Shown: positions 4,553 to 49,166, counted from the first letter of the stretch. The stretch: DNA of 52,209 nt from Gammaproteobacteria bacterium (GCA_030950195.1 JAUZRS010000251.1:1-52209); one strand, 5' to 3'. The notes: a model not told the origin generated them from the letters alone. Translations and numbers: made by a program.

Positions 4553-4576
4553 CCGTTATTGTTTGGGAAAGCTGTT

Positions 4577-23008: not shown

Positions 23009-23119
23009 TTATAAAATCGGCCTCTGTGTAGTGGTCAAGTAAATCTGGCCAAAGATTAGGAGCTAATTCCAAAATTGCAGCTCAGCTGACGCAGGGGATA
23101 ATCCTAAGTTGATTCAAAT

Positions 23120-26338: not shown

Positions 26339-26929
26339 TCACCACTCAATCCCTGCCTGCGCTTTCACCCCAAGACGAAACGCATGGCCGTCATCTTTGA
26401 TTGTGCTGATGGTATCGCCAATGGCCAACAGCTCCTCCACCATCGTCCGTCCGGTGATGATCACCGTCTGGTTTTTGGGGCGATGTTGCAACGCCGCCAC
26501 CACCGGCTCAATGGGCAAGTAACGGTACTTAAACATATAACTCATCTCATCCAGCACCAGCATATCAATGCTGTCATCTTGCAGCAGTTTTTCCGTCACC
26601 GCCCACGCCTGTTTCGCCGCCTCAATGTCCTGCTGCTTATCTTGAGTCTCCCAAGTAAAGCCATGCCCCATCACATGCCACTGCACCTGTGGGTGATCGT
26701 GAAACAGTTTATATTCACCGGTCTGCACTCGACCCTTGATGAACTGCACCACCGCACAGCTCTGACCGTGCCCCAGCGCCCGCGCCAAAGTACCAAAGGC
26801 AGAACTGCTTTTACCTTTGCCGTTGCCGCGCAGCAGAATCAACACCCCGCGCTCTTCCGTCGCCTTAGCAATGCGCTCGTCGATGACCGCTTTTTTACGC
26901 GCCATGCGCTGTTGATGATCTTGACTCAT
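26339..26929 (-). CDS. cobO: Cob(I)yrinic acid a,c-diamide adenosyltransferase
   Basis: 196 aa. P-loop-like GNGKGKSSSAFG, then VVQFIKG and LDE motifs typical of CobO/BtuR. The start overlaps the upstream chelatase gene by 4 nt. Confidence 0.9.
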   Translation of the reverse strand: MSQDHQQRMARKKAVIDERIAKATEERGVLILLRGNGKGKSSSAFGTLARALGHGQSCAVVQFIKGRVQTGEYKLFHDHPQVQWHVMGHGFTWETQDKQQDIEAAKQAWAVTEKLLQDDSIDMLVLDEMSYMFKYRYLPIEPVVAALQHRPKNQTVIITGRTMVEELLAIGDTISTIKDDGHAFRLGVKAQAGIEW

Positions 26930-28578
26930 AAAACCAACTCCAACTGAGAAAGGGGCAAGTAATCCGCCTGCAACAGAGCCGCCACTTCACGACAGCGCCC
27001 GCGCTTGACCGCCGCCACTTCGCTGTCGATCACCACGGTACGTCCAGACAAACGCACCGACGGCAAACACTGCCGACTGCGACCGTCACTGATTAAATAA
27101 TTCACCAACTGCAACTCCGGTTCCATCTGCAACCAGCGTTGAGTGCGACCCTGCAGGTAACTCAAGGCCTCGCGCAGCGGCGTACCTCCGGCAGCGGTCA
27201 AGCCATCCAGAAACGGCAATGGATTTTTGGGTGCGCGCTGGCGTGGCAACAGCTCTGTCACCTCTTGATTACCAAAACCGATCACCAACACCTGCTGACG
27301 CGCCAAATAGGCCTGCCGAGCAATGCCCGCCACCACCCCTTTGGCTTGAGCAAACGCCGACTCGCCCAACGTAGAGGCGGAACGATCCAGCAGCACCACA
27401 TGCAGCCGTTGTGGACGTTGACGCGCCCGCTGAAAAGCCAAACTCTGCCACGGCCAGATGCCACGATTGGCAACAACGGTGGCAAACCAACTCGGTTTGC
27501 TGTGCGTTTTCTGACTGCGTTTGCCTTGCGGCGCAAGGTTCGCAGATTTGGGCAACTCGGGCAGATTCACGCGACGCACAGCGGCGCTGGGCTGTGACTG
27601 TTCGCGTGCCATGCTGCCCCAATCTCCCGCCGCTTCGGTCTGTTTATCCGCCTGATTTTGCTCTGGCGGACGGCTAAAGGGAGGCGGTTCAGACGGCGCT
27701 GAAGGGGGTTCAGGTGGCGTTTTACGTCGATGCAGCAGCACCAACTCTTGCACCGCTTCCAGATCCGCCAAAGTCACTTCCACACGCCCCTGCCAAGCGG
27801 CGTGGCTTTTGGCCGCTCGACACCAGACAATATCGGCGCGCAACCCCTCCACCTGCGCCGCTGTGCAGCGTTCGGCAATGATTTCACGATGCTGTTCAGC
27901 GCACTGCACCGACGACAAACGCCGCCGAGCGGCCAGAAGTTCATCGGCCAAAGCTTGTTGTTGAGCCTGATAAGCCTGACAAAAAGCCTTGGGGTCGTCG
28001 TCAAAACCCTCGCGCTGGCGCACGATCTCGATCCGTTCCGCACGGCTGTAGATTCCGCTCAAAGAAACCGCCAAACCAAACCGATCCTGAAACTGGCTGC
28101 GCAGTTCTCCCTCATCAGGGTTCATCGTCCCCACCAGCAAAAACCGTGCGTCGTGTTGATGGCTGATGCCGTCCCGCTCAATGCAATTGATGCCGCTGGC
28201 GCTCACGTCCAGTAGTTGATCCACCAAATGATCGGCAAGCAGATTGACCTCATCCACATAAAGCACCCCCCGATGGGCGTGCTGCAACAGTCCGGGCTGA
28301 AATTCAACCTGCTGCTGATCCAGCACCCGTTGCAGATCCAGAGTGCCGATCAGCGCCTCTTCGCTGCACCCCAAAGGTAGGTTGATAAACGCACCCTCGG
28401 GCAACAGCTCCGCCAAACTGCGCGCCAAGGTGGATTTAGCCGCCCCTCGCGGACCGCTGATGCAGAGCCCGCCCAGACGCGGGTCGATGGCCAGCAGCAG
28501 CAAGGCGATTTTCACCGCCTGCTGCCCCACCACCGCTGAAAAAGGAAAATAACTCACAAAAAAAACCGCCGACCACAT
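26926..28578 (-). CDS. ChlI/ChlD(BchD)-like fused chelatase subunit: AAA+ module, Pro-rich linker, vWA domain
   Basis: FPFSAVVGQQAVKIALLLLAIDPRLGG, Walker A GPRGAAKST and Walker B LYVDEVNLL. Linker PPEPPSAPSEPPPFSRPPE. The C-terminal vWA domain begins VVLLDRSAS. ATG 28578 is preferred because the track start at 28611 translates a palindromic repeat. Confidence 0.8.
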   Translation of the reverse strand: MWSAVFFVSYFPFSAVVGQQAVKIALLLLAIDPRLGGLCISGPRGAAKSTLARSLAELLPEGAFINLPLGCSEEALIGTLDLQRVLDQQQVEFQPGLLQHAHRGVLYVDEVNLLADHLVDQLLDVSASGINCIERDGISHQHDARFLLVGTMNPDEGELRSQFQDRFGLAVSLSGIYSRAERIEIVRQREGFDDDPKAFCQAYQAQQQALADELLAARRRLSSVQCAEQHREIIAERCTAAQVEGLRADIVWCRAAKSHAAWQGRVEVTLADLEAVQELVLLHRRKTPPEPPSAPSEPPPFSRPPEQNQADKQTEAAGDWGSMAREQSQPSAAVRRVNLPELPKSANLAPQGKRSQKTHSKPSWFATVVANRGIWPWQSLAFQRARQRPQRLHVVLLDRSASTLGESAFAQAKGVVAGIARQAYLARQQVLVIGFGNQEVTELLPRQRAPKNPLPFLDGLTAAGGTPLREALSYLQGRTQRWLQMEPELQLVNYLISDGRSRQCLPSVRLSGRTVVIDSEVAAVKRGRCREVAALLQADYLPLSQLELVL

Positions 28579-28584
28579 TTGCTC

Positions 28585-28610
28585 GTCATTCCCGTGAATA
28601 CGGGAATCCA
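28585..28610. repeat. ATTCCC-N8-GGGAAT palindromic repeat, third copy
   Basis: GTCATTCCCGTGAATACGGGAATCCA has the same flanks (GTC...CCA) as the 21.6-kb copies. Confidence 0.75.
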
Positions 28611-28636
28611 TTGCTTACACGACAACAAGCTAAAAC

Positions 28637-29368
28637 TCACTGCGAAGCTTCAGTAGAGAACGTTAAACCACGGCGCAAGCCCCACGCAGCGAGCAACCCC
28701 AGCGCCAACCAGAAGAGCAGATTGGCCACGCCTGCCGAAAGCACAAACTGATGATGCAGCTCAACCAAGGAAGCCACGGCAGCGGGATCGGGGTGAATAA
28801 ATTCGGGGCCATTGAGCTGTGGCGCGCCAATTAAATGCGGCAACAGCAGCAACACAACACCCAAGGCTTTAAAAGGCAGCTGAGCAAAAAAGAGCAGGTA
28901 AAAACCCGCTCCGCTGGCCAGCACCGTCAGCAACCACCACGTTTGGCGCGACTCCAAGGCCGCCGCTTGGGTACCTGGAATTTCCGGCAACAGCCCCAAA
29001 CTGGGCGCAGCGAAGAAGGTCAAAAAACCCACCAAACCCCAGAGCAGCCCTGTGCCCAAACTGAACGGCGCACTGTTTTTAAGCTGCATGTAAGCCATCA
29101 GAGCCAGCAACATGGCTGCAAAACCAATCGCCGCCAACACATTGGAAAGCAGACTGTACAGCGTCCGCTCCACACCTTCTGCCGGTGCCCACGCTTCATC
29201 GCCATGAGAATGCGCACCGTGATGATGATCATGACCGGCCTCGGCCTGTTCAAATTGCTCAGCAGCAATGATAATCGGGGTCACTTGCCACTGCTGCACA
29301 GCGGTTAAAAAGAAACCGCTCAACAAACCCACAAACAGCGATAACAGAATCAATCGACGAAACAGCAT
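28637..29368 (-). CDS. cbtA: CbtA, cobalt transporter subunit
   Basis: Membrane protein with a His-rich loop GHDHHHGAHSHGDE. Lies downstream of cbtB and a cobalamin riboswitch. Confidence 0.8.
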   Translation of the reverse strand: MLFRRLILLSLFVGLLSGFFLTAVQQWQVTPIIIAAEQFEQAEAGHDHHHGAHSHGDEAWAPAEGVERTLYSLLSNVLAAIGFAAMLLALMAYMQLKNSAPFSLGTGLLWGLVGFLTFFAAPSLGLLPEIPGTQAAALESRQTWWLLTVLASGAGFYLLFFAQLPFKALGVVLLLLPHLIGAPQLNGPEFIHPDPAAVASLVELHHQFVLSAGVANLLFWLALGLLAAWGLRRGLTFSTEASQ

Positions 29369-29514: not shown

Positions 29515-29694
29515 TCAGTGACAGGGAAAGGTGACGCTGTGACGGGTGTCATGAGCGGCGTTATGCACCGCTTCGGTGGGCAAAAACCCCACCAGCAGCA
29601 TCATAACAGCGCCAAACAGAAAGCTGCCCAACAGGGCGACTTTGGCTTGGTCCAGCTCAAGAGGAGCGGCATTAGAGAGTGTGTTGTTTGACAT
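29515..29694 (-). CDS. cbtB: CbtB, small cobalt transporter subunit (59 aa, below the ORF-track cutoff)
   Basis: Minus-strand translation is MSNNTLSNAAPLELDQAKVALLGSFLFGAVMMLLVGFLPTEAVHNAAHDTRHSVTFPCH. It ends with the characteristic HNAAHDxRH...FPCH motif and has a GAGG RBS. Confidence 0.8.
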   Translation of the reverse strand: MSNNTLSNAAPLELDQAKVALLGSFLFGAVMMLLVGFLPTEAVHNAAHDTRHSVTFPCH

Positions 29695-29852: not shown

Positions 29853-29879
29853 CAGCAGAGTATGATACCGAAGTTTGAC

Positions 29880-29911
29880 GTTTCAATCCACGCACCCGCG
29901 TGAGGTGCGAC
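29880..29911 (-). CRISPR. Solitary type I-C CRISPR repeat (array with no spacer)
   Basis: Minus strand reads GTCGCACCTCACGCGGGTGCGTGGATTGAAAC: 32 nt with GTCGC at the 5' end, an internal hairpin and an ATTGAAAC 3' end, as in canonical I-C repeats. It lies 177 nt downstream of cas2. No second copy was seen. Confidence 0.8.
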
Positions 29912-30088
29912 CGCCCGATTCTAATACACTAATTTTTAAAGAACAATTGGTAGATCTGCGCTAACCAGCACCACGAAGAGGTCGAAAATAAAAAAATCAG
30001 CAGTCTAAAGTATTATTTACATTAAAAACAATGGCTTAAAAACCCGCTAACCTCCCTAGGGTAAAATGAGAGCCAGAGGTTAGCGCAC
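29912..30088 (-). other. CRISPR leader region
   Basis: A/T-rich non-coding stretch between the cas2 stop and the repeat. Contains the hairpin CGCTAACCTC-21 nt-GAGGTTAGCG (30045-30085) directly after cas2. Confidence 0.6.
29918..29946 (-). promoter_or_regulatory. Candidate sigma70 promoter in the CRISPR leader
   Basis: Minus strand TTGTTC (29946-29941), a 17-nt A/T-rich spacer, then TAGAAT (29923-29918). The predicted start is at about the first base of the repeat. Confidence 0.4.
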
Positions 30089-30382
30089 TCAAAGAATCAA
30101 ACTGTCTCGCAAAGCATCAGGAACTGGCTTCGCTCCAACATGTTCGACTTTTTTCCTGCCTTGTTTACCCAAAAAATAAAAACGCAAACTGTCCTTTTTT
30201 GGATCAAAAATAGCCGTCAACTTAGCCTTAAGAACAACAAATTGAGCCGGTGTGACTTCACATTCAAACACCGAGTTTTGCACTCGCATCCCGTAATCAA
30301 GACAGGTTTTTGCGATGTTACGCAAACGTTTTGTCCCACCGTCAGACACAACACTCACATCATATGTAATCAGTACCAACAT
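30089..30382 (-). CDS. cas2: Cas2
   Basis: MLVLITYDVSVVSDGGTKRLRNIAKTCLDYGMRVQNSVFEC... is the classic Cas2 N terminus. The ATG at 30382 lies 1 nt after the cas1 stop. The track N-terminal extension overlaps cas1. Confidence 0.9.
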   Translation of the reverse strand: MLVLITYDVSVVSDGGTKRLRNIAKTCLDYGMRVQNSVFECEVTPAQFVVLKAKLTAIFDPKKDSLRFYFLGKQGRKKVEHVGAKPVPDALRDSLIL

Positions 30383-30383
30383 C

Positions 30384-31400
30384 TTATTTAACCCAGTAAG
30401 GTGGATAGTATTCGAGATCGCCCCGAATGTGCCGTGCCAGCAACAACGCCTGACAATGAGGCAATAAGCCAATGGCCACCGACTCACCCAGATAAGGATG
30501 AGTCACCTCTGTCTGTTTACGTTCTTGCCATGCAGACAACACCGTCTTTCTTGCGTCATCTGTCAAACGCACAGCACCACTGGCTTCGGTCACAAAATCC
30601 GTCAATTGGATTTGGCGGCGATTGATCAATGTCAATACAAAACGATCAGCCCAAAACGCTCGAAACTCCTCCAGCAAATCCAGCGCAAGACTGACACGAC
30701 CAGGACGGTCTTTATGCAAAAACCCCACATACGGATCAAGCCCCACCCCTTGCAAAGCAGAAGAGCACTCATGAGTAATGAGCGTGTACGCAAAAGAGAG
30801 CAGCGCATTAACCGGATCCAGAGGAGGGCGACGAACGCGACCACTAAACACAAAACCTTTACCGCGAATCAGTTCATTAAACGCCCCAAAATAACTGCGC
30901 GCGGCATCGCCCTCCATCCCCATGACCTCTTCCACCGATTTGGCCTGCTTTACTCGACGCAAACTAACAGACAACTTTTCTGCCGCACCTCGCAACACAG
31001 AATTATCACCATGATTACGCAACTCCCTCATCAACACCGAGCGGCTATTGGCCACCTTAGCTGCCACCATCAAACGCGCAATCGAGGTGCATTTTTCATC
31101 TTCATCCGCCCAACGATATTGGCCACGTCGCAACAACACGTTGCCTGTTTGCGGCCCCTGAACTCGTGCTAGAAACTTGCCATATTCGCTATAAAACGTC
31201 AGCCCGATCCCCTTTTCACCACAGTAACCCATCAGAAAAGGAGAGACTGAAACCTGACCAAAACAGAGAATATTGCCAATCGTTAACGCCGGAAACTGCC
31301 CCAGCTTTTCATCCCCATTCTTAATAACAATGGTCTCTCGCTCTTTATGGAGATAACTTTTTTGGCGCGTAATATAAAGGCTGTTCAGCAATTTTTTCAT
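30384..31400 (-). CDS. cas1: Cas1 (type I-C)
   Basis: 338 aa. MKKLLNSLYITRQKSYLHKERETIVI start and conserved FGFxGR-like and EEFR regions. Lies between cas4 and cas2. Confidence 0.9.
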   Translation of the reverse strand: MKKLLNSLYITRQKSYLHKERETIVIKNGDEKLGQFPALTIGNILCFGQVSVSPFLMGYCGEKGIGLTFYSEYGKFLARVQGPQTGNVLLRRGQYRWADEDEKCTSIARLMVAAKVANSRSVLMRELRNHGDNSVLRGAAEKLSVSLRRVKQAKSVEEVMGMEGDAARSYFGAFNELIRGKGFVFSGRVRRPPLDPVNALLSFAYTLITHECSSALQGVGLDPYVGFLHKDRPGRVSLALDLLEEFRAFWADRFVLTLINRRQIQLTDFVTEASGAVRLTDDARKTVLSAWQERKQTEVTHPYLGESVAIGLLPHCQALLLARHIRGDLEYYPPYWVK

Positions 31401-32020
31401 TATTTAAATAACTCATCAATATAAGCGGCTGAATGATCACGACGAAACGTATCTGGTTCACACACATTCACCAAAGAGCAGGCTCTACACCGCTTTTTAT
31501 CTTTAATCGGCGCAGGGGTTTTGCCTAAATTCAGCAGTGTACGAGCCGCTTTAATCACCGCGATGGTGCTTTCTCTCAGTTCGGTGTTAATGCTGACCAG
31601 CTCTCGCTTACGCACCTCCCAGTACCAAAGAGCACCTTCGTTCACTGCCACGGAACGCATCTCTTCAAGACACAGTGCCTGCGCACAGAGCTGAATACGA
31701 TCCCAATCGTGTACTTTAGGCTTTCCCCGTTTGTACTCCACAGGAAAATAATGGAGTGGCTCACCCTCCTCGATCTCCAAAAGATCCATTTTTCCAGTGA
31801 GGCCGTATTGTTGCGAGTGCAGCAGCACACTGCGCTCGTATCTCTTTTCTCGCCGCTGCTCAGCAACCGTGCTGTCCACTCGCTCGTGCAACACCCGGCC
31901 TTCTGCGGTAAAGCGGTTTTCTTCCCACACTTGCTCAATATGAATCAAAGCAAATTGACGTGGACAGTAGGCATAATGTTGTAGGGCTGAGATGGCCAGA
32001 TGATCATCGTTCATCTTCAA
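31400..32020 (-). CDS. cas4: Cas4 (RecB-like exonuclease with Fe-S cluster)
   Basis: 206 aa. YAYCPRQF N-terminal Cys plus C-terminal CRACSLVNVC cluster. Overlaps cas1 and cas7 at both junctions. Confidence 0.9.
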   Translation of the reverse strand: MKMNDDHLAISALQHYAYCPRQFALIHIEQVWEENRFTAEGRVLHERVDSTVAEQRREKRYERSVLLHSQQYGLTGKMDLLEIEEGEPLHYFPVEYKRGKPKVHDWDRIQLCAQALCLEEMRSVAVNEGALWYWEVRKRELVSINTELRESTIAVIKAARTLLNLGKTPAPIKDKKRCRACSLVNVCEPDTFRRDHSAAYIDELFK

Positions 32021-32856
32021 AACCCATCAATTTCCTCTGGCTGTAAACCCTCCAAATTATCCAGCGTATAAGCTCCATCTGCCTTTACCGAAAGCGTCCG
32101 GTGAACCTTTGCAGATGAATATTGACCTGATTTACAGTTGTGTTTCCACCAAATCACTTTTTCAACCACCATACTGCCTTCTGGACGAGCAGAGGAAGAA
32201 TCACCCTCAAACAATTTGGGCAGTATCGTCTTTATTTTATCGGCATCCGCATCATCAAAGCCCGTTCGAACAGCCAATTGGGGCGACATTGCGCCAAACG
32301 TGACGTAAACGGCTTTATCAACACGGTGCTTCATGCCCATGGTATCTGAGCCTTTTTTAGTGCCATCGCCTTCACCGCTGACACTTTTGGTGATTTGTGT
32401 GCTGGTAATACTAACGGGTTCAACACTAAATGCAGATTGAATTGAAACCGGCCCCCGAATCGGAATAGAAACACCCTCTTTGTTTTCACCCTTAAAAGCA
32501 AACAGTTGTCCAAAACTGCGTACATCCATCCATTTTTCATTTGCTAGTCGTGCTGTTTCTACAGGCGTGGTCTTTTTTACATTAAACGCCTCTTTTCCTA
32601 AGCCATGCTCGCTCGACTCTGCACGTCTTTTTAAACTGGGCATACCATCGGTTTTTTTCTCATCCGACTGCACAAATATCGGCTCACCTGCATCTTGCAA
32701 GCGGTCTCGAATTTTTCGTTTGATGCAAACATCCGACACCTCACCAAAGCCATCGTAGTCGGTGCGAGGACGATTTCCGTTCAGTGGGTCACCGTTAGGA
32801 TTGGCATTTTTCACACTAAAAATCAGGGCGAAATCAATTTTATTTTCTAAGCTCAT
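32017..32856 (-). CDS. cas7: Cas7c (Csd2)
   Basis: MSLENKIDFALIFSVKNANPNGDPLNGNRPRTD... is the typical Csd2 N terminus. 279 aa. Confidence 0.9.
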   Translation of the reverse strand: MSLENKIDFALIFSVKNANPNGDPLNGNRPRTDYDGFGEVSDVCIKRKIRDRLQDAGEPIFVQSDEKKTDGMPSLKRRAESSEHGLGKEAFNVKKTTPVETARLANEKWMDVRSFGQLFAFKGENKEGVSIPIRGPVSIQSAFSVEPVSITSTQITKSVSGEGDGTKKGSDTMGMKHRVDKAVYVTFGAMSPQLAVRTGFDDADADKIKTILPKLFEGDSSSARPEGSMVVEKVIWWKHNCKSGQYSSAKVHRTLSVKADGAYTLDNLEGLQPEEIDGF

Positions 32857-34853
32857 TTGTTGTCTCCATCAGTTTGTAATTCGCTACTTTCATTTGTTTG
32901 TTTTTTATTGCGAAGCTCAAATCGTTGGGCGTGATACGCCAACAGAAACTCTCCACTTAAAGGTTTGTCACTCAAAAATTCACCTTCTTCGAATTTAACC
33001 ATAACCTCATCCAATAGAGTTTGGATGTTATGCAAAAATCCTGCTCGGTTATTTTTTAGCCGTTGAATATAGGGCAATAATGCCAGCTCGATGTTTCGCC
33101 AGGTTGATGAGGGTCGATCTGCAAATCGTTGCATTAATCTGGCCGCCGTGGTGGAGCGATTTTCTCCAGCCACATAAAGTGACACACCTTCAATTCTTTC
33201 TGCAATCGCCAGCAAGCGACCATATAAATAATCTCGTGACGTATTGTCTTGCTCTAATCCCACGGTATATTCCTTATTCTGTTTTGGATCTCGTTTACAA
33301 AAGCCTCGGTACAAAGCACAGGCTATTCCTAAGTGTTTTTCCCACAACCACTGTTCATCCGTTTTATAGGCACTTCGATTACTGGCACGGCGCACCGCTT
33401 TTTCAACCAAATCTTGTGGGAATGGACGCGCTTCAACAATACAGGGTAAAACACGCTCAATGGTATTTTTCTTCAGTGAATCACTTACCGTGCTGCCATA
33501 AATAGCCTCCCAGATTGCCCGAGGGGATGGCGCACAAACAGGCCATACTGTCTTTGACATTGGTTTTTTCTTGCCAACATCTTTTTCAACTTTATGGCGT
33601 TGATACCAAGCAAACTCGTTATGCCATTTTGAGACACGCTCAATGTAGTCATCAGAAAAAAATTCTTGGTAATAGGTAATCGCCATGCGACCAGGGGTTG
33701 CAGAATCAAGCCCCATGATGATGATGCTGTCTGTAGCCTGTAATTTGACCTGATAACCGGCCATGTACTTTCCCAGAGCAATGGAAAATTGCTGCCCCAA
33801 GTTTTTTGCATGATCAATCTGGTTTTCAAGCAGCGGTAGCGGAAGAGAAACCTCTTGTATCTCTTCTGGCATGGCATCCCAAAGGTCTTCCATTGGTTCG
33901 GGTATCTCCTCACCTGATACAGCCCAAGCGATAATAGCTTGATCCCCATTTCGGAACCCTTGCCGAGAAATCAACCACCGCAAAGCATTGTGAGCTTTTT
34001 GCGTTACATCAAAAGAAACTCCAACCGATTGCGTACCCTGCTTTTCTATTGTGTTCTTAGTATCCGTAAACCGACCTCTAAAGGTATAACCCGATTTGTC
34101 ATTTGATGAAATCAGTTTTGCTTTATCACCTGTATGTCGCAATTTAGCAGGATGGTTAACGGCCAACGGTACATTCTTGCCTGTGATATAACACAACCCT
34201 ATCTGCCCCTTACTTTCTGACTCATAGTTTACCCATGCACGTTGCAAACTAGAATCCTCCCAACTGTTGCTCACAGCCTCACCTGGAACCTCAATGCTCC
34301 AACAAACCAATGCATTACCTTGATCCAAGATGCCTTTTTCTTTCGGTAACACTTTGAATATTTTTGGAGCCTCACACTCACCACTTTTTGGCCAAGACAA
34401 CAACAATGAATGCTCTTCATCAGTAAACAGAACCTTACTTTCAAGCAAATCTTTTACAACACACCCTTTTTCAACATACAATTTTACCGCCCTTGCTTTG
34501 CAATGAGTGTATTTTGAGTTACACCATTTATCCAGCTGCTCAAGATACCCATTAAAGTAACCTTTCTTTTTACCACCATAATCTGGATAATCTTTAGCAA
34601 CGTATTGAATTTTATCGGCCAATGGATGAGGTGCTTCGCCACTGCTTCTACCCGCTGACTTTTCAGTTGCAGGCAGTACCACTTGTGTTTTTTCTAAAAC
34701 CTCAGCCCGCCTAAAATTACCTTCAACATCAAGGGTTATTTTGATATGTGCATTTTGCAAGGTATGACTAATCGGCATCAACTGGTCTGAGTCAGGCAGA
34801 TCAAGCTGCATACCTGCTTCGTAAGTCTCATACAACTTTGCCATCCAGCTCAT
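32853..34853 (-). CDS. cas8c: Cas8c (Csd1), large subunit
   Basis: 666-aa ORF between cas5c and cas7c with 4-nt overlaps on both sides. MSWMAKLYETYE start is typical of Csd1. Confidence 0.85.
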   Translation of the reverse strand: MSWMAKLYETYEAGMQLDLPDSDQLMPISHTLQNAHIKITLDVEGNFRRAEVLEKTQVVLPATEKSAGRSSGEAPHPLADKIQYVAKDYPDYGGKKKGYFNGYLEQLDKWCNSKYTHCKARAVKLYVEKGCVVKDLLESKVLFTDEEHSLLLSWPKSGECEAPKIFKVLPKEKGILDQGNALVCWSIEVPGEAVSNSWEDSSLQRAWVNYESESKGQIGLCYITGKNVPLAVNHPAKLRHTGDKAKLISSNDKSGYTFRGRFTDTKNTIEKQGTQSVGVSFDVTQKAHNALRWLISRQGFRNGDQAIIAWAVSGEEIPEPMEDLWDAMPEEIQEVSLPLPLLENQIDHAKNLGQQFSIALGKYMAGYQVKLQATDSIIIMGLDSATPGRMAITYYQEFFSDDYIERVSKWHNEFAWYQRHKVEKDVGKKKPMSKTVWPVCAPSPRAIWEAIYGSTVSDSLKKNTIERVLPCIVEARPFPQDLVEKAVRRASNRSAYKTDEQWLWEKHLGIACALYRGFCKRDPKQNKEYTVGLEQDNTSRDYLYGRLLAIAERIEGVSLYVAGENRSTTAARLMQRFADRPSSTWRNIELALLPYIQRLKNNRAGFLHNIQTLLDEVMVKFEEGEFLSDKPLSGEFLLAYHAQRFELRNKKQTNESSELQTDGDNK

Positions 34854-35566
34854 AATTTTTCTCCCTCAAGCTCCACGGACAAAAAGTTCTCACCTTCTAC
34901 GAACTCTTTTGGCAACATCGTACGAACAAAACGACTCACTGTACATTCCTCAGGGCGAGGAAATTCCAAAATTCCCTTTTTTAAAGTAGAACTCCAAAAA
35001 CGGCTGTGCAGTTCATTTTTACCCGTCTCATCTGGGTAATCAAAACCATGAAACATCAAACCAAAACCCAGCTCATCAATATCATCATAAGCACCGACTC
35101 CCTCACCAAATTCACATGGCTCAACGTAGGCCTGACAGTCACGAGTTCCCAGAAAAATATCCTGCCTGCCACCCCGTTCGATTGATCGTTTCGCAATGGA
35201 AAAGTGCTTGCCGTCAATATGATCCTTGGCCAATTCAGGTCGGTGTTCGTTCCATTCAAAATGCGCTTCGACCTGATACTCCACCTCATGCAAAAAGGTA
35301 TAAATGGCCAAACTGTTACCACCACTCCAGACCAACGGTTTGACACCCTTAGTCTGTGTTCGCAACGTTTTAATCACCCTCACCTTATCCACATACCAAA
35401 TAAAAGAAGGCTTCCAATAAATTGATTTTAAAACACCTTTTATGGCTTCATAAGTTGGCAAGTGATAGGAGCATTTTTCACCACCTATTTTTGTCACTGG
35501 ATCAGTAAACAGGGCATAACGCCCATGCACCTTGAAACTGACACTATTCTTTGGCGTTGCATACAT
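34850..35566 (-). CDS. cas5: Cas5c (Cas5d) pre-crRNA endoribonuclease
   Basis: SFKVHGRYALFTDPVTKIGGEKCSYHLPTYEAIKGVLKSIYWKP is the hallmark Cas5d N terminus. 238 aa. Confidence 0.9.
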   Translation of the reverse strand: MYATPKNSVSFKVHGRYALFTDPVTKIGGEKCSYHLPTYEAIKGVLKSIYWKPSFIWYVDKVRVIKTLRTQTKGVKPLVWSGGNSLAIYTFLHEVEYQVEAHFEWNEHRPELAKDHIDGKHFSIAKRSIERGGRQDIFLGTRDCQAYVEPCEFGEGVGAYDDIDELGFGLMFHGFDYPDETGKNELHSRFWSSTLKKGILEFPRPEECTVSRFVRTMLPKEFVEGENFLSVELEGEKL

Positions 35567-35578
35567 TCGGTTTTCTCC

Positions 35579-37993
35579 TTAAAAAACATGTGCTGTCATT
35601 TGACAACAGGGTTTATCAGACAAGCCAAATTCATTACTGTAATATTGCTCATCCAGACAGTAGATCTCTTCATCAGGCTGTATTTCATACACCGCTTTTT
35701 CTTGCTGTAATCGCTTCAACACATTCGGAAAAACATTGACACTGTATTGCTGCGCCTGCTTCAGCAAGTTACGATACCTTTTTATATCAAACTCTTTCGC
35801 CACACGCCCCAACTCAGCAATAATATTTTTCCCCTCATTACCATACGGAACAATGATCGCTTGTGTGGGCGAGTCAATCGCCTTGAATATCTTGCCAGCG
35901 GTCATAAAAGAGTGTTGCAGCAGAATAGATTTTTTATTTTGGCCAACATTCCGCGTATTCTCGCTCAATAAATTAAGCAGATCATCATCCCAACCCAACT
36001 GCTTGGCTGAAACAGGGTAACTCATCTCCTTAGCTCGATCATGAAAGTAATATTTAAAATACTGACCGATGGCCTCGGGAGCAAGCAAATTATCAAATCC
36101 TTCTTCCATTACCCGCAAGGCCTTATCTCGACCAACCTTGATTTCTTGCAATAAATCTATTTTTTCTTCATCTGGATTGACAACATGCACTGTCGCGCTT
36201 TTGAGTAAACCATTTCTATTGCAGCGCCCAGCGGCTTGCGCTATGGAATCCAATCCAGCCAGAAACCGAATCACTGAAGAAAAATCCACATCGACACCCG
36301 CTTCAATTAATTGGGTACTGATACAGATAACGGGTTGATTGCTCTTCAATCTCACCTTAATTTTTTTAAATATGACTTTACGGTGTGCAGGACAGAGACT
36401 GGTACTCAACTGAAAAATTGAATTTTCATCAACATCAGGATCCGTCTCTATCTCAAGGTACAGTTGTTGCGCCCAAGATTTGGTATTAACAATCACCAGA
36501 CAACTACCGAGTTTTTTAAATTCCGCCAAGGCAAGCTCTGAAATTTGAGCCGTTGTCCAGCCTTCAGGACGAACTTTGTTGCTCAAAGTCACACGATTTA
36601 AATCTGCAAACAATTTAGGTACATTGTTAACCAACTCATTTTCAGGCGGTAGCAGCAATTGCCCTTTCTCTGGAGAATGAAGTTTATCGAGCAACGGCTG
36701 CGTCGCGGTACAAAGTAGCGCAGTCGTTTTACAATGATCACTAAGGAAATTTAGCGCGTTGCAAAACAGGTGGACGCAATTTATTGGCAAAGTCTGAATC
36801 TCGTCAAAGATCAACACGCTGTTGGCCAGTTGGTGCATTTTTCTTGCGCCTCGTGTACCACCTGAAAACAGCACCTCAAGAAACTGCACCATCGTTGTCA
36901 TCACAATGGGTGCATCCCAATTCTCACTCACCAACTTGCTATGCCAACTCTGCTGTTCTGGCTCCAGATTCGAATGCTGTTCCAGAACCCACGGGGTTTC
37001 ATCCCTTGAATCTTCAATAACCGCTCTAATAGCCTCTGCGTTCTGTTCAATAATAGAGGTAAAGGGAATAATATAAATAATCCGATCCAGTTTATGCTGC
37101 TGAACATGATGCAGTGCGTAACGCAAGCTGGCGTAGGTTTTTCCTCCGCCAGTGGGAACAGTGAGGGTATAAATTCCCTGCGCATCTAACGCTCGCGCAC
37201 GGCACGTCTCTGAAATCTCTCTTCGCAATAGATCAATCGGCTTATCGCCATTGAATTTTTTATTAGCCCGCTCAAAACGTTCAATAGCAATAGTCCAAGC
37301 GGGTCTATTATTTCTATAAGGTTCATTCTCAGGAAATTCAAAGTCTGCGCTGTTCATACGGTCGGCATCAATCAAACAACTGAATAACAGACGGCTAAAA
37401 AAACCCACATTAAATGCTCGAATGGATTTATTAGGCGCTTGACCAACGACCTTGAGCCGCCGCCATACGCATTGAATCAACTCTTTTCCCACTAATGCCT
37501 GAATCTTTTCAAGGTACTCTTCTGGCGCGCTCTCCAATGCTTCATTTTTATGGGTTTTATGATCCGACTTTTCCATTCTTTTTGAGAAGCTATTCTTGCC
37601 GTCTGGCTTGAGACAATCAATCAAACCACTGTGGTGTGACGCAATACAAAGAGACAAAATTTGACCAACCAACTGCCCTTGTAGCCCCCACTTTTGGCAG
37701 CTCTCCCAAACCCATTGAGCACCGGCACTGGAATGATCAATCTTTCCCTTTAAACCTTTAAAATCAACAAAATCATCCTCATCTGGATTAATCAGGCCTG
37801 TCGCAGATGCTAAATATGTCTGAAATTCTGCACTGTATTTTCCAAAATCATGTAATAAACCAATGACTTCACCCGCATCACCTAGTCCTATTTTTTCTGC
37901 ACAACGTGCAGTCAAACAGCCCACTTCGTTCAAGTGATCAATCAGATTTTGCTTATCCCCATTTTTTTTCACATGAGCAATGTGGTTATTCAT
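35579..37993 (-). CDS. cas3: Cas3 HD nuclease / SF2 helicase
   Basis: HD motif LLHDFGKYSAEFQ. Helicase motif I VPTGGGKT and motif II IFDEIQ. 804 aa. First gene of the operon. Confidence 0.9.
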   Translation of the reverse strand: MNNHIAHVKKNGDKQNLIDHLNEVGCLTARCAEKIGLGDAGEVIGLLHDFGKYSAEFQTYLASATGLINPDEDDFVDFKGLKGKIDHSSAGAQWVWESCQKWGLQGQLVGQILSLCIASHHSGLIDCLKPDGKNSFSKRMEKSDHKTHKNEALESAPEEYLEKIQALVGKELIQCVWRRLKVVGQAPNKSIRAFNVGFFSRLLFSCLIDADRMNSADFEFPENEPYRNNRPAWTIAIERFERANKKFNGDKPIDLLRREISETCRARALDAQGIYTLTVPTGGGKTYASLRYALHHVQQHKLDRIIYIIPFTSIIEQNAEAIRAVIEDSRDETPWVLEQHSNLEPEQQSWHSKLVSENWDAPIVMTTMVQFLEVLFSGGTRGARKMHQLANSVLIFDEIQTLPINCVHLFCNALNFLSDHCKTTALLCTATQPLLDKLHSPEKGQLLLPPENELVNNVPKLFADLNRVTLSNKVRPEGWTTAQISELALAEFKKLGSCLVIVNTKSWAQQLYLEIETDPDVDENSIFQLSTSLCPAHRKVIFKKIKVRLKSNQPVICISTQLIEAGVDVDFSSVIRFLAGLDSIAQAAGRCNRNGLLKSATVHVVNPDEEKIDLLQEIKVGRDKALRVMEEGFDNLLAPEAIGQYFKYYFHDRAKEMSYPVSAKQLGWDDDLLNLLSENTRNVGQNKKSILLQHSFMTAGKIFKAIDSPTQAIIVPYGNEGKNIIAELGRVAKEFDIKRYRNLLKQAQQYSVNVFPNVLKRLQQEKAVYEIQPDEEIYCLDEQYYSNEFGLSDKPCCQMTAHVF

Positions 37994-38167
37994 GACATGT
38001 CTCAGTATTTTAAGGAGTAAGAAACCATAACATGAAACAAGTCTCTAAATAAGAATTTAAACACTATTAACCCCATCGTCTTGAATAAGATTCACATCAG
38101 ATAAGCCCTATTTTGTGGATCACAGTCACAACAGTGGCAGATCAAACCTTCCCCCTGCTTCAGCCTC

Positions 38168-38195
38168 GATGTCCGATGTCCGATGTCCGATGTTT
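38168..38195 (+). repeat. Heptanucleotide tandem repeat (GATGTCC)x3 plus GATGTTT
   Basis: Read directly: GATGTCCGATGTCCGATGTCCGATGTTT. Each unit carries an ATG, so successive ATGs fall in all three frames. Confidence 0.9.
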
Positions 38196-38253
38196 TATTC
38201 TGCTGTTGATTTGGCTAGAATGGCGCGCAATTACAACCATAAGGCATCAAACC

Positions 38254-39603
38254 GTGTCAGATCCTGTTCCAGATACAACTGCACCGCCCTCCCCAGTCAC
38301 CTTTTGGCAGTCGTTTCTCTACTGGCTGAAACTGGGTTTTATCAGTTTTGGTGGGCCTGCCGGTCAGATCAGCATGATGCACCAAGAGTTGGTGGAGAAA
38401 CGGTGCTGGATCTCTGAGCGGCGTTTTTTACACGCGCTGAACTACACCATGGTTTTACCCGGCCCCGAAGCGCAGCAGTTGGCAACCTACATCGGTTGGT
38501 TGATGCACGGCGTGGGGGGTGGCATCGCCGCTGGGGTGCTGTTTGTTTTACCCTCACTGTTTATTCTCAGCGCCTTGACGTGGGTCTATCTGGTTTACGG
38601 TGATGTCGCTGCCGTAGCGGGTATTTTGTATGGCATTAAACCCGCCGTGACGGCGATTGTGCTCTTTGCCGCCTATCGTATCGGTTCACGCGCTTTGAAA
38701 AACAATCTGCTGCGCGGCATGGCGCTGTTGGCCTTTATTGCTATTTTTGCCTTCTCTATTCCTTTTCCCTACATCGTTTTAAGTGCAGGATTAATGGGCT
38801 ATTTCGGTTCCCGTTTCGCGCCAGAACAGTTTCAAGTGGGCGGCCATCACGGTGCCTCAAACGACACTTTTGGCGCGGCTTTAATTGATGACAACACCCC
38901 CATTCCCGCACACGCTAAATTTAAAACCAGCCGCTTTCTGACCTTTTTATTGGTGGGTCTGCTGATTGCTGCCAGTGTCATGATTTTATTAATCCTGAAC
39001 TACGGCTGGCAAGGCACACTGACCCAGATGGGCTGGTTTTTTAGCAAAGCGGCCTTAGTGACCTTTGGCGGTGCTTACGCGGTGTTACCCTACGTTTACC
39101 AAGGCGGTGTTGAGCAGTACGCCTGGCTGACGGGCACCCAGATGATTGACGGTTTGGCTTTGGGTGAAACCACCCCAGGGCCACTGATTATGGTGGTGGC
39201 TTTTGTCGGTTTTGTCGGCGCATGGACAAAAGAAATTTTTGGCCCAGAGATGCTGTTAATGGCAGGACTGGCCGGTGCAAGCGTTGCCACGCTGTTTACC
39301 TTTTTACCGTCCTTTTTGTTTATTCTGCTCGGCGGCCCCTTGGTTGAAGCCACCCGTGGTGATCTGAAATTCACCGCTCCCCTAACGGGCATCACCGCAG
39401 CGGTGGTGGGAGTGATTCTTAATTTGGCCGCCTTTTTTGCTTACCATGTACTTTGGCCAGCAGGCTTTGAGGGTTCCTTTGAATGGGTTTCTGCCTTAAT
39501 TGGTCTGGCGGCAGCCGTGGCGCTGTTTCGCTTTAAGCTCGGCATTGTCACGGTCATCGCCGCTGCGGCGCTGTTGGGTTTGCTCTATTCCGTTCTGGCT
39601 TAA
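38254..39603 (+). CDS. chrA: Chromate transporter ChrA (two fused CHR domains)
   Basis: FLYWLKLGFISFGGPAGQISMMH and a second AALVTFGGAYAVLPY motif. Polytopic. The start is uncertain: GTG 38254 has an AAGG RBS, and in-frame ATG 38176 lies inside the heptamer repeat. Confidence 0.8.
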   Translation: MSDPVPDTTAPPSPVTFWQSFLYWLKLGFISFGGPAGQISMMHQELVEKRCWISERRFLHALNYTMVLPGPEAQQLATYIGWLMHGVGGGIAAGVLFVLPSLFILSALTWVYLVYGDVAAVAGILYGIKPAVTAIVLFAAYRIGSRALKNNLLRGMALLAFIAIFAFSIPFPYIVLSAGLMGYFGSRFAPEQFQVGGHHGASNDTFGAALIDDNTPIPAHAKFKTSRFLTFLLVGLLIAASVMILLILNYGWQGTLTQMGWFFSKAALVTFGGAYAVLPYVYQGGVEQYAWLTGTQMIDGLALGETTPGPLIMVVAFVGFVGAWTKEIFGPEMLLMAGLAGASVATLFTFLPSFLFILLGGPLVEATRGDLKFTAPLTGITAAVVGVILNLAAFFAYHVLWPAGFEGSFEWVSALIGLAAAVALFRFKLGIVTVIAAAALLGLLYSVLA

Positions 39604-39615
39604 AAATGCCTTATT

Positions 39616-41001
39616 TCAGCATTCAATAATATTCACCGCCAGCCCACCCAAAGAGGTCTCTTTAAACTTCACCGACATCTCCATCCCCGTCTGTTTCATC
39701 GCCGCAATGCAGTCGTCTAAGGTCACCAGATGCTGACCGCTGCCCCGCATCGCCAAGGAGGCAGCGGTGTAGGCTTTAATCGCACCAAAACCATTGCGCT
39801 CAATGCACGGCACTTGCACCAAACCTTTAACCGGATCACAGGTCATGCCGAGGTGATGTTCAAGAGCCATTTCTGCCGCATTTTCAATCTGCTCTGTGCT
39901 GCCACCCCGCACCGCACACAACCCCGCCGCTGCCATTGAGGCCGCCACCCCCACCTCTCCTTGACAGCCCACTTCCGCACCGGAAATAGAACCGTTGTGT
40001 TTAATCAAACCGCCGATGGCCGCAGCGGTTAATAAAAACGTTCTAACCTGCTCTGCTGTACCCGCTTCATGCAAGATAAAATAATATAAAATGGCCGGTA
40101 TCACCCCCGCTGCACCGTTGGTTGGTGCGGTCACCACTCTGTGTCCGGTGGCATTTTCTTCATTAACAGCCATCGCATAGGCACACAACCAATCGTTGGC
40201 ATTCACCCTATTAGAATGAGTATCAGCCAATAACTGTTGATGCAAATCCTTAGCACGACGCGGTAAATTCAACCCACCTGGCAACAGCCCCTCCGCAAGC
40301 AAACCACTTTTAAGGCAATGCAACATAGAGGACCAGATTGCGTCAAGACCTTGATTCAACACCTCATTGGAACAGCGTTGCAGTTCATTACAGCGTTTCA
40401 TTTCGGCAATGGAACGTTGACTGTCGGCGGACATTTCCAACATCAGGCGTGCTGAAGAAAAACCATACACAGCCGCCGCCTTTTTTGTTTCCTGCGCTGA
40501 AATCGACTGATTCATTTCTGCACGTGTACTGATAAAACCACCACCAAGAGAAAAATACGTTTCTGCAAGCAGCGTTTTTCCATTCTGATCCAACAGCTCA
40601 AAAATCATTCCATTGGGGTGTTCTGACAGTGCCTCGCCTTGATCAAAAATAATGTCCTGTTCGGGATTAAACAAAACCCTGTGATCCTGATCCAGCTCAA
40701 TAGAAGAGTCGCACCAGACACGGCTCACAATCGCATCCAAGCCCTCTTGCGCCACATCCTCCGGCAAATAGCCGTGCAGCCCCAAGGCCACGGCACGATC
40801 CGTCGCATGTCCTTTGCCGGTAAAAGAGAGCGACCCTTTAAGGGTGCAGCGAAGGGAGCTGTCGGGGGAAGAGGGCTGAGCAACGAACAAGTGCTGTTTA
40901 ACCCGCTGCACAAACGCTTGCGCCGCCAACATTGGCCCCATCGTATGCGAGCTTGAAGGACCGATGCCAATTTTAAACAACTCAAGAACACTGATAAACA
41001 T
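39616..41001 (-). CDS. sdaA: L-serine ammonia-lyase (Fe-S dependent, single chain)
   Basis: [25 protein letters not shown] terminus and 461 aa length are diagnostic. Confidence 0.9.
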
Positions 41002-41045
41002 ACTGCAATCCTTTATTTTTTAGCTAAAGCCTATTTACATTAATT

Positions 41046-41957
41046 TTACGCACCGCTGCAAGCCAGAAAACGTTGATACAAGCCCATAATCTGCTCAGCC
41101 ACGCTCTCATTGCCCGCATACAATAACCCACGATGATTCATAAACGTCGTAGTCAAACGATTCAACGCCAACGGCTGCCCTTCAATGTCCACTGCCACCG
41201 CACCGACCTCATGAAACAGGCAGGCAGTGGCGGCGTAATCCCACAGACTGCCCCCGCTGGCACCCTCTCGTGGATATTTAAAATAACAGTGATTCGGCGT
41301 TTCCAACAAATGGCACGCATTCATCACCGCACCGATACGAAAATGAATTTCAGCCCCCGGCAAATCCAAAACATCTGCAATGGCCTCTAAACCCGTTTGT
41401 GTCTGCTGCAACCACCGATGCTGCTGAAAACTGAAATCGGTGGTTAACACCAAAGGCTGAGCCTGATCCAATTTAGGCCGCTGCATTAAACAGCCGTTTT
41501 TATACGCTCCCTGACCCCGAACGGCGCTGAAAAGCGTTTCGGTTACAGGATCAAAGACCACCCCAATCAATGGGGTGCCATTTTGTGCCACCAGCGCAAT
41601 GGAGACCGAAAAACCGGCCTCCTGCTTCACAAAAGCCAAAGTGCCGTCCATAGGATCAATGCACCAAAAAGCCGCTTTCTGATGACGCTCGCCATCGTCA
41701 CGGGACTCCTCGGCCAACAGAGCTAAATCGTATGACAAGCAACTGGGCTGTAAAATGGCCAGAATGGCCGCTTGAGCTGTGTGATCCACTTCGGTCACGA
41801 TCTGCGACGCGGCACTGCTGCCGACGTTTTTTTGCTGGATGTGAAACGAGCTGTGACGATGAGCGTTGATAATCGCCCCTGCGGCAAGGGCGGCTTTAAT
41901 CGCCCGTTGTTTTAATTCATTTAACTGTTGAACGTTAAAATTCAACTGTTTTCCCAA
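41046..41957 (-). CDS. Inositol monophosphatase / CysQ-family phosphatase
   Basis: Motifs LLAEES and WCIDPMDGT. The start is uncertain because it overlaps the vapC 3' end by 16 nt. Confidence 0.75.
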   Translation of the reverse strand: MGKQLNFNVQQLNELKQRAIKAALAAGAIINAHRHSSFHIQQKNVGSSAASQIVTEVDHTAQAAILAILQPSCLSYDLALLAEESRDDGERHQKAAFWCIDPMDGTLAFVKQEAGFSVSIALVAQNGTPLIGVVFDPVTETLFSAVRGQGAYKNGCLMQRPKLDQAQPLVLTTDFSFQQHRWLQQTQTGLEAIADVLDLPGAEIHFRIGAVMNACHLLETPNHCYFKYPREGASGGSLWDYAATACLFHEVGAVAVDIEGQPLALNRLTTTFMNHRGLLYAGNESVAEQIMGLYQRFLACSGA

Positions 41958-42367
41958 GGATTATAAAGCTCTACTGAACTCTGCTGCATATCTGAAATAT
42001 TGCGCGTCACCACCACACAGTGATTGATTAAACCCGTCACCGCAATCAAACCATCAATGGCAGGCAACGGCTTACCCACGATCTCTGAAGCACCCTGTAT
42101 TTCACCCCACTTTGATGCAACACGCAAATCAATGGGTAAAACTCGTCCCTTGAAACGCTGTTTTAAATCATTCTCAAGCCATAATCTCAAACGGTTTTTT
42201 CTAATTTCATCAGATGATTTTTTTATGCCTTTCTCAATTTCACCAAAGGTGAGTACACTCAGATAAAGTGCTGACTCATCCTGTTTTTGCAACCATTGAA
42301 TCACGCTTTTATTTGGCTTTGGCCTAATCACCTCAGAAATAACACAGGTATCCAACAAATATTTCAC
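41942..42367 (-). CDS. vapC: PIN-domain toxin (VapC/FitB-like)
   Basis: MKYLLDTCVISE start carries the first acidic PIN residue. 141 aa. 4-nt overlap with the upstream antitoxin gene. Confidence 0.85.
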   Translation of the reverse strand: MKYLLDTCVISEVIRPKPNKSVIQWLQKQDESALYLSVLTFGEIEKGIKKSSDEIRKNRLRLWLENDLKQRFKGRVLPIDLRVASKWGEIQGASEIVGKPLPAIDGLIAVTGLINHCVVVTRNISDMQQSSVELYNPWENS

Positions 42368-42627
42368 AAGTCTGTTTCTCTTGGTTTTGCCTTATCTCTG
42401 TCTAGGTCAAATTCCACCTCGGCAAGAGGTGAATCACGCAAAAAGGCCACCAAATCTGTTTTAGGTTGAGTAATTTTTATGTACTCTTCAAACGATAAAA
42501 CCACCACCGCTTTATCACCGTGTTTTGTCACAATTTGCGGTTCCTTATGCATCGCGTCAGAAACCAACTGACCAAAATGACTTTTTGCTTCCTGTAACTG
42601 CCAAGTATTGTCTTTCATGATTCCCAC
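42364..42627 (-). CDS. Phd/YefM-family antitoxin
   Basis: WQLQEAKSHFGQLVSDA...PQIVTKHGDKAVVVLSFEEY is the typical Phd/YefM N-terminal domain. The start is either 42627 or 42618. Confidence 0.8.
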   Translation of the reverse strand: MGIMKDNTWQLQEAKSHFGQLVSDAMHKEPQIVTKHGDKAVVVLSFEEYIKITQPKTDLVAFLRDSPLAEVEFDLDRDKAKPRETDL

Positions 42628-42715
42628 CCTAACTATTTAAAACAGTGATGACTAGACACTAAAGCGTGAAACGATACGTGTCAAAAACCCAGCAAGGGCG
42701 GAACATATTCCACCC

Positions 42716-43690: not shown

Positions 43691-43806
43691 ATTTTATACA
43701 TCAGGAAGAACATCCCAATTATCAACAAAACCACAAACCCGCCAAAAAATCGCTTTATCTGTCATAGTCACTCCTATAAATTTTCTATCCAATTTTATTA
43801 AAAAAC

Positions 43807-44529: not shown

Positions 44530-44535
44530 CGCCGC

Positions 44536-45921: not shown

Positions 45922-46106
45922 ACCTCCTCCAATCGATCACAGACAAATTATAGGCGCAGTTTAGCGGTTTCCTGCTCACAGGCCTAATCTTCTGCACCAA
46001 GGAGGGTGTTCAAAAAACCAACCCCAAACCAAGCAAGCAAAAAAAGTCACCAGCCCGTCACAACAGTTAGGTATAATTAAGACTTTCTTTACTTTCCGGA
46101 CACGTC

Positions 46107-47054: not shown

Positions 47055-47055
47055 A

Positions 47056-49089: not shown

Positions 49090-49166
49090 AAAAAAACCTT
49101 AACTAAACAGTGGATAAACAGAGCCCCTTCTGGCTCTCTACAATTTTATCCCACCATTTTAAGCCA

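Follow-up and report, generated by a model that had tools for sequence, protein, structure and literature searches.

A CRISPR locus with a full set of cas genes, a leader and one repeat, and not a single spacer, raises the question of what became of its array and of what the system can still do. Such a locus lies at positions 29880–37993 of a 52,209-bp contig from a Gammaproteobacteria bacterium (GCA_030950195.1, JAUZRS010000251.1:1–52209), which was analysed at its full length and is referred to below as the window. The window is the entire contig of a metagenome-assembled genome (MAG), and all copy counts and absences reported here hold for that contig only. The locus represents a true type I-C CRISPR-Cas system that is complete and was acquired by horizontal transfer, and its one repeat runs almost directly into host DNA carrying a cobalamin riboswitch. 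With about even confidence, we explain this arrangement by loss of the ordinary array of a real, horizontally acquired I-C locus, through a deletion or rearrangement that ended at the first repeat-spacer boundary and left the system memoryless and re-armable.

A complete type I-C cas operon of foreign composition

Seven uninterrupted type I-C open reading frames (ORFs) occupy the minus strand from 29880 to 37993 in the order cas3-cas5c-cas8c-cas7-cas4-cas1-cas2. All seven products (7/7) scored above the curated NCBIfam cut-offs for I-C or Cas families with essentially full profile coverage, confirming that the genes are full-length and uninterrupted as the initial annotation had stated, and the subtype-specific I-C models were passed by Cas5c, Cas8c, Cas7 and Cas1c. 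The signature of type I-C is present, i.e., cas8c, cas7 and cas5c together with cas3 and without cas6, and there is no extra ORF in the operon. The tight coupling by 1–4 nt overlaps that had been described was found at four consecutive junctions (4, 4, 4, and 1 nt), but not between cas3 and cas5c (a 12-nt gap) or between cas1 and cas2 (a 1-nt gap).

The first gene, cas3 (37993–35579; 804 amino acids, aa), encodes an HD nuclease and superfamily 2 (SF2) helicase (NCBIfam cas3_core, 123 bits; cas3_HD, 107 bits) that aligns with the solved I-C Cas3 structures 8ZNS and 8G9U (E-value of 4e-82). Its HD, PTGGGKT, DEIQ (motif II), TATQP and QAAGRCNR motifs are conserved with respect to its relatives and to both structures, and DEAQ or DEIQ is the usual form of motif II, both for this clade and for the solved I-C Cas3 structures. 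It is followed by cas5c (35566–34850; 238 aa; TIGR01876, 249 bits, profile positions 1–202 of 203), encoding the endonuclease of type I-C that acts on the CRISPR RNA (crRNA) precursor; over residues 5–227, the protein aligns with Cas5d of Bacillus (Alkalihalobacillus) halodurans (4F3M; E-value of 1e-87; ca. 60% identical by eye), including an IYWKP tyrosine and a GKH pair, which we take from the Cas5d literature to be the catalytic residues. The product of cas8c/csd1 (34853–32853; 666 aa; TIGR01863, 360 bits, profile positions 1–587 of 588) gave weak matches to solved I-C Cas8c proteins, and within its gene a candidate internal start for Cas11c can be discerned at GTG codon 531 (around position 33263), preceded by AAGGAA and predicted to yield a 136-aa product. 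The effector genes are completed by cas7/csd2 (32856–32017; 279 aa; TIGR02589, 308 bits).

The adaptation module opens with cas4 (32020–31400; 206 aa; TIGR00372, 158 bits), the product of which has a four-Cys cluster and a RecB-like D..EYK motif that were both matched in an end-to-end alignment with the I-C Cas4 in structure 8D3L (E-value of 2e-36). The product of cas1c (31400–30384; 338 aa; TIGR03640, 508 bits) aligns over residues 1–336 with the I-C Cas1 of the same structure (E-value of 2e-104), with the E/H/D-E residues matched, and cas2 (30382–30089; 97 aa; TIGR01573, 62.6 bits) closes the operon. As judged from the profiles and the 8D3L alignment, cas4-cas1-cas2 is present with its catalytic residues. 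Together, the alignments of Cas3, Cas5c, Cas1 and Cas4 to characterised I-C structures keep the key residues, in agreement with the catalytic motifs noted initially, and from their sequences all Cas proteins look catalytically competent.

Gene set and order, including the lack of cas6, are those of the I-C systems of B. halodurans, Desulfovibrio vulgaris and Neisseria lactamica (4F3M, 8D3L, 7KHA, 8G9U, 8ZNS). Unlike these solved systems, the locus has no spacers, its adaptation and effector modules differ in their affinities, and its Cas8c is distant. The cas region has a GC content of 41–48%, against 52–60% for the cob genes on one side and 49–55% on the chrA side, and its tetranucleotide correlation with the flanks is lowered, so that the A/T-richer island perceived in the initial annotation is borne out. 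Horizontal acquisition, proposed on that ground, is further supported by a 94.5%-identical relative (L015, see below) that is without CRISPR-Cas upstream of the same riboswitch.

A conserved leader followed by a single repeat

Next to cas2, on the minus strand, lies a 177-nt CRISPR leader (29912–30088) with TCGCTAA and GGTTAGCG boxes. In an alignment that included five related loci, leader length and boxes proved to be conserved, i.e., TCGCTAA, two copies of GGTTAGCG, and ATTGTTCTTTAAAAATTAG...TAGA right before the repeat, and all of these are kept in the window. The alignment is full-length with related loci bearing real arrays of 26, at least 6, and at least 3 repeats. A putative promoter (TTGTTC-N17-TAGAAT; 29946–29918) can be recognised within the leader, ending 6 nt before the repeat and uncalled by our consensus scan.

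The leader precedes one perfect copy of a canonical 32-nt I-C repeat (GTCGCACCTCACGCGGGTGCGTGGATTGAAAC; 29911–29880, minus strand), with a predicted 7-bp hairpin and a 3′ handle (...ATTGAAAC). The repeat resembles that of B. halodurans in its length of 32 nt, its GTCGCAC... start and its ...GTGCGTGGATTGAAA(C/T) end (PMC6519985). The description of the locus as ending in a leader and exactly one canonical repeat thus stands, as does the reported absence of any further copy: elsewhere in the contig, with both strands considered, the closest sequence matches at 19 of the 32 positions, which is the level expected by chance (shuffle mean maximum of 19.5). No second copy with up to three mismatches was found in the contig (nor in shuffled sequence), and no tandem or direct repeat family was found near the repeat. 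A CRISPR array is defined by at least two direct repeats and at least one spacer, whereas here one copy is followed by native host DNA. As assembled, the locus codes for no crRNA bearing a foreign spacer and hence confers no immunity by itself.

Nevertheless, we infer that Cas1, Cas2 and Cas4 could rebuild an array, with the leader and one repeat as a sufficient integration substrate, because type I-E of Escherichia coli in vivo and type I-C of B. halodurans in vitro both work with one repeat. In E. coli, a leader and one repeat are sufficient for spacer acquisition in vivo, as the initial annotation had noted for other type I systems, and natural single-repeat arrays arising via recombination were predicted (Yosef et al. 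2012, PMC3384332). The leader-plus-one-repeat architecture of that work is also that of the window, although the former concerned another subtype and an artificial construct, while the latter is natural (or assembled) and has its trailer replaced by a host operon. For B. halodurans I-C, the in vitro integration substrates likewise hold one repeat (PMC6519985).

Multi-spacer arrays made up of precisely this 32-mer occur in six metagenome contigs (L001–L006), and it is therefore a working repeat variant. The idea that these contigs belong to the same organism was rejected, their flanks being unrelated and A+T-rich. This bears on whether the memory of the system might reside elsewhere, i.e., whether arrays with the same repeat on other contigs supply crRNAs in trans while the cas-adjacent repeat is a decayed secondary array, a scenario that is compatible with array loss by deletion and that we consider rather unlikely. 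It would fit the seven intact cas genes, which suggest ongoing selection, and the visible part of the genome amounts to only 52 kb. Moreover, arrays often escape binning into MAGs. However, the exact 32-mer had no match (0) in the 185,579 GTDB species-representative genomes scanned, the six metagenome contigs that do carry it have the unrelated flanks just mentioned, and in relatives that reach past cas2 the array directly follows cas2 and the leader. Look-ups of the exact Cas1, Cas7 and CbtA sequences returned no contig, and a search of genome contigs for relatives of the chelatase-like protein confirmed none.

The repeat abuts a cobalamin riboswitch operon

On the same strand, a cobalamin riboswitch aptamer (29864–29728, minus strand; Rfam RF00174, 73 bits versus a gathering score of 31.5, full-length over model positions 1–189) begins 15 nt past the repeat, leaving no room for a decayed array. 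This riboswitch controls a cbtB-cbtA-chelatase-cobO operon, composed of cbtB (29518–29694; 58 aa; Pfam PF09489, 66 bits), cbtA (28637–29368; 243 aa; Pfam PF09490, 159 bits), an AAA+ chelatase-like gene (26926–28611) and a cobO/btuR adenosyltransferase gene (26339–26929), all on the minus strand, of which the latter two were assigned via Pfam and are syntenic with the relatives L015 and L019.

Both relatives serve to place the junction. Contig L015 (MAG GCA_030949385.1) shares 94.5% identical DNA with positions 29877–25004 of the window (BLASTN, 4.9 kb), CbtA being 96% identical to protein P0121 of that MAG, and carries hrpB followed by the riboswitch (73.2 bits, RF00174), with no CRISPR there. 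Contig L019, which is short and stems from a more distant relative, has the same upstream sequence and no CRISPR either. Homology to L015 and L019 resumes 1–2 nt past the last base of the repeat (the L015 match begins at 29877), and since the two CRISPR-less relatives are homologous up to the repeat, the sequence after it is native rather than a spacer, trailer or degenerate repeat. At the junction itself (29878–29879, minus strand), 1–2 nt (G or perhaps GT) separate the repeat from the host-homologous DNA, and the sequence reads ...GGATTGAAAC, G, TCAAACTTCGGTATCAT....

A stretch of the native riboswitch sequence located 31 nt past the repeat (29848–29817, minus strand) resembles the repeat at 18 of 32 positions, while such matches occur in the window at a rate of 2e-4 per position. 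It was rejected as a decayed repeat, the same sequence being present in the CRISPR-less L015, and was treated as chance, the likeness being otherwise unexplained.

At the equivalent place, the relative shows ATGCCA-N17-TATCAT, and the break in the window falls between this predicted –35 box and its –10 box. The predicted native –35 of the cbt operon is therefore gone in the window, and the repeat end TTGAAA sits there instead. Our consensus scan indeed returned a promoter-like TTGAAA-N16-CATACT (29859–29886, minus strand; 9 of 12 positions), the –35 hexamer of which is the 3′ end of the repeat, with the native –10 (TATCAT) kept near it; this is a weak consensus match and in itself no evidence of function. 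Transcripts from the leader would traverse the repeat hairpin into the riboswitch, and leader transcription may now contribute to the expression of the cbt/cob operon.

Such an arrangement invites the thought that the element was exapted for a non-immune role, either as a crRNA-like RNA with the 5′ end of the riboswitch transcript as its "spacer", or with the repeat providing the cbt/cob operon with a –35 box and a site of 5′ processing, so that cobalt uptake or B12 synthesis would come under the control of Cas proteins or the CRISPR leader. The co-directional leader, repeat and riboswitch, the 15-nt spacing of the latter two, the use of the repeat end in TTGAAA-N16-CATACT where the predicted –35 of the relative is gone, and a repeat hairpin that is predicted to fold independently are all in line with this, and regulatory roles have been described for repeats that stand alone (PMC10120712). 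Yet the promoter matches are weak ones, the fold of the whole region is no stabler than that of shuffled sequences (z-score of 0.4), and the arrangement is conserved neither in related I-C loci nor in relatives of the host. The 35 nt past the repeat also have no partial match flanked by a protospacer-adjacent motif (PAM) in the contig, the cas3 promoter region included: among seed matches in the contig that lie next to a TTC PAM, the highest covered 9 of 12 positions, at an unrelated coding site, and none was found in the cas3-chrA intergenic region. The non-immune role raised in the initial annotation is thereby left unsupported as far as regulation is concerned, and we regard exaptation as very improbable.

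One or more extra repeat-like sequences were present in 34% of the I-C loci of a published survey (Shmakov et al. 2023, PMC10120712). The solitary repeat units, mini-arrays and CreTA-CreR-type elements of that survey are, like the repeat described here, lone array-type repeats inside a CRISPR-cas locus, but they lie beside a normal array, are conserved among related loci, and have a pseudo-spacer partly matching a cas or toxin promoter, whereas the window shows none of these three features (0/3). A CreR/CreA-like regulator was rejected, as no PAM-flanked partial target was found in the contig and related loci carry ordinary arrays after the same leader.

Origin of the join

The initial annotation suggested a simple collapse of the array by repeat-repeat recombination. 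However, recombination between the first and last repeat should leave the trailer in place, while here the trailer is absent, host homology resumes 1–2 nt past the repeat and the host –35 region is gone, so that a deletion or rearrangement is needed. This event would have had one of its ends where the first repeat meets its spacer, and its second end inside the cbt promoter, between the –35 and –10 boxes. A microhomology-mediated join was also considered, since CACCTCA is common to the 5′ part of the repeat and the native sequence of the relative, but it was dismissed because a motif at that end of the repeat would not account for the join.

Several points weigh against loss of the array by deletion. 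Firstly, the window is a MAG contig, and the assembler could have arrived at the single-repeat state via the 32-nt repeat node, or have assembled a minority variant. Secondly, the cbt-side and chrA-side blocks are adjacent in none of the relatives retrieved, so that the join at the repeat is without independent corroboration, and the chrA-side proteins have no orthologue of at least 90% identity in GCA_030949385.1, even though identity to this MAG reaches 96% on the cbt side. Thirdly, a random deletion would end within 2 nt past the repeat in only about 3% of cases (2 of ca. 67 positions per repeat-spacer unit), a coincidence that is left unexplained. Finally, seven intact cas genes without spacers are under no obvious selection, which suggests either that the event is very recent or that there are arrays elsewhere.

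The first two of these points feed the explanation that the single repeat is an artefact of assembly or population structure. A normal array would then exist at the site, its last repeat abutting the riboswitch and its spacers skipped by the assembler, or a rare spacerless variant would have been assembled. A 32-nt repeat is short enough to form a single de Bruijn node at small k. In addition, a merger of the first and last repeats would be expected to yield a perfect consensus repeat, such as the one in the window, the flanking blocks are linked in no relative, and related short-read contigs break or mis-join in their first repeats: three of them (L008, L010, and L011) end in repeat 1, and a fourth (L014) has a join between an I-C and an I-E-like repeat. 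At k above 32, on the other hand, the path from leader through repeat to flank requires real spanning reads. Any overlap between the repeat and the native flank is too short for the two to be joined by an assembler unless reads cross the junction. Assemblers also usually break at arrays instead of collapsing them, as the same related contigs illustrate. Moreover, the tetranucleotide correlation between the two flanks (0.84–0.91) equals the within-flank values, and an inter-organism chimera was rejected on this indistinguishable composition, although the test is a weak one. Even if the array was skipped, the repeat-riboswitch junction must be real DNA. On balance, we regard an artefact as the main alternative, less probable than true loss of the array.

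The third point, i.e., the exactness of the boundary, could also be read as a sign that the CRISPR machinery itself acted on the chromosome. During integration, the second cut of Cas1-Cas2 falls on the spacer-side boundary of the repeat (PMC6519985), and the join might then be a footprint of the CRISPR machinery rather than of a random deletion, with the array deleted, the leader fused to the B12-riboswitch operon, host genes now transcribed from it, and the resulting locus spacerless and self-tolerant. In one conceivable route, the integrase would have joined a chromosomal DNA end to the repeat boundary; in another, Cas3 self-targeting would have been followed by annealing of a self-derived first spacer with its source. 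Recombination between a self-spacer and its protospacer would give exactly such a structure, but was rejected because the relatives have CAA or AAG, and not TTC, before the would-be protospacer. Overall, this footprint scenario seems improbable to us, and deletion or rearrangement of an ordinary array remains the explanation that we favour.

Related loci and the mosaic nature of the system

The nearest Cas1 proteins (83–87% identical) belong to loci of Candidatus Thiodiazotropha, Thiotrichaceae and gammaproteobacterial MAGs (L007–L014). Relatives of this type are 80–85% identical in Cas2 and 75–78% in Cas4, and the leader is 75–85% identical to that of Thiodiazotropha-type loci (a range given jointly with Cas4, Cas1, and Cas2). 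They share a homologous leader of the same length, and their repeat differs from that of the window at 3–5 positions. Unlike the window, they have arrays of 2 to at least 26 repeats, a Bro-N-domain gene between cas4 and cas1 and, except for L013, another effector module (21–38% identical). The array of L007 has 26 repeats, those of L013 and L012 have at least 6 and at least 3, respectively, and that of L009 has two repeats with one spacer, showing that small arrays occur in this family. The contigs of L008, L010 and L011 stop inside repeat 1.

These arrays bear on a further possibility considered in the initial annotation, namely a naive system that was transferred with its leader and one repeat only, never held spacers and awaits a first acquisition. 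The foreign composition, the intact leader-repeat junction and the sufficiency of one repeat for adaptation would all be compatible with this. Every close relative whose contig passes the first repeat has spacers, however, no integrase, transposase or att-like repeat marking an edge of the island was found in the window, and the transfer would need to have stopped exactly at the repeat boundary. Since "never had" is indistinguishable from "lost", the two states cannot be told apart from the locus as such, and we hold a naive origin to be unlikely, only a little less so than the footprint scenario.

In contrast to the adaptation proteins, Cas3, Cas5, Cas8 and Cas7 are only 21–38% identical to those of most relatives. 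Cas5, Cas8 and Cas7 are 61–85% identical to those of L013 alone, in which the start of cas3 is cut off so that Cas3 was left out of the comparison, and by their PDB matches the effector proteins of the window are B. halodurans-like. By these similarities, the locus is a mosaic of B. halodurans-like effectors (cas3-cas5c-cas8c-cas7) with cas4-cas1-cas2, leader and repeat of the Thiodiazotropha/Thiotrichaceae type.

Mosaicism was also seen among the relatives themselves. Positions 6172–8781 of L012 and 5560–8169 of L013 are 99.85% identical, from cas4 through cas1, cas2 and the leader into the first spacers, while the effector genes upstream of cas4 (cas5, cas8, and cas7, with cas3 cut off in L013) have no DNA similarity; this pattern indicates that the effector module was swapped, the breakpoint lying where cas4 begins.

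The Bro-N-domain gene (111–283 aa) lies between cas4 and cas1 in every close Cas1 relative (L007, 9143–9985; L009, 9577–9912; L010, 9139–9990; L011, 1423–2130; L012, 6791–7126; L013, 6179–6514; L014, 620–955). It is missing from the window, where cas4 and cas1 overlap by 1 nt. In L009, the two repeats and one spacer (11488–11584) end with a degenerate terminal repeat (...GGATTGAATT), and uvrD follows directly. In L014 (2440–2526), an I-C first repeat and a spacer-length stretch are followed by a type I-E-like repeat (GTGTTCCCCGCGCATGCGGGGATGAACCG), which represents either adjacent arrays or a short-read mis-join.

Flanking regions

On the other side of the island, the divergent intergenic region between cas3 and chrA (37994–38253; 260 nt) contains a perfect tandem heptamer, (CGATGTC)x3.9, at 38167–38193, and is followed by chrA, encoding a 449-aa product. 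The genes for ChrA, an inositol phosphatase and a kinase are syntenic in two chrA-side relatives (L016 and L018), in which a polysaccharide gene cluster lies upstream of chrA, and neither cas nor cbt.

Proteins of the cbt side (window 1–29877) cluster at 90% identity or more with those of GCA_030949385.1, while on the chrA side (38000–52209) ChrA, SdaA, the kinase, a PDC sensor and an LTA synthase are singletons at 90%. The nearest relatives of the window ChrA (88% identical) come from other assemblies, and among the ChrA matches carrying NCBI accessions none was from GCA_030949385.1.

Upstream of the same riboswitch operon, at a distance of a few kb, L015 has a defence island of its own (617–5722), which encodes two DNA methylases, a restriction enzyme of the ApaLI type and BrnT/BrnA, and the neighbourhood of this operon may be a hotspot for defence genes. 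The window also contains a second insertion of low GC content (23010–25003; 43.6% GC) with a candidate defence pair, PDC-M25A (23857–25014; 523 bits) and PDC-M25B (23120–23857; 299 bits). This insertion is missing from the 93–94%-identical relative L015, which has ca. 190 bp in its place.

Implications

The locus is a canonical, ordinary type I-C system, its state being unusual although it had been predicted, and its interest, which is modest, derives chiefly from the exact repeat-riboswitch fusion and from what it implies for "array-less" cas operons in surveys. If the single-repeat state were an assembly artefact, the locus would be a caution for the reading of CRISPR loci in MAGs. If the single repeat is real, it would be a natural case of the minimal array that laboratory work found to be enough for adaptation, and a snapshot of a CRISPR-Cas system after total loss of memory and before decay of its cas genes. 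The fusion to the riboswitch would in turn offer a concrete case of array loss rewiring the upstream region of a metabolic operon. Moreover, because standard CRISPR finders require at least two repeats, such loci would be reported as cas operons without arrays, and some of the "array-less" systems may in fact be re-armable.

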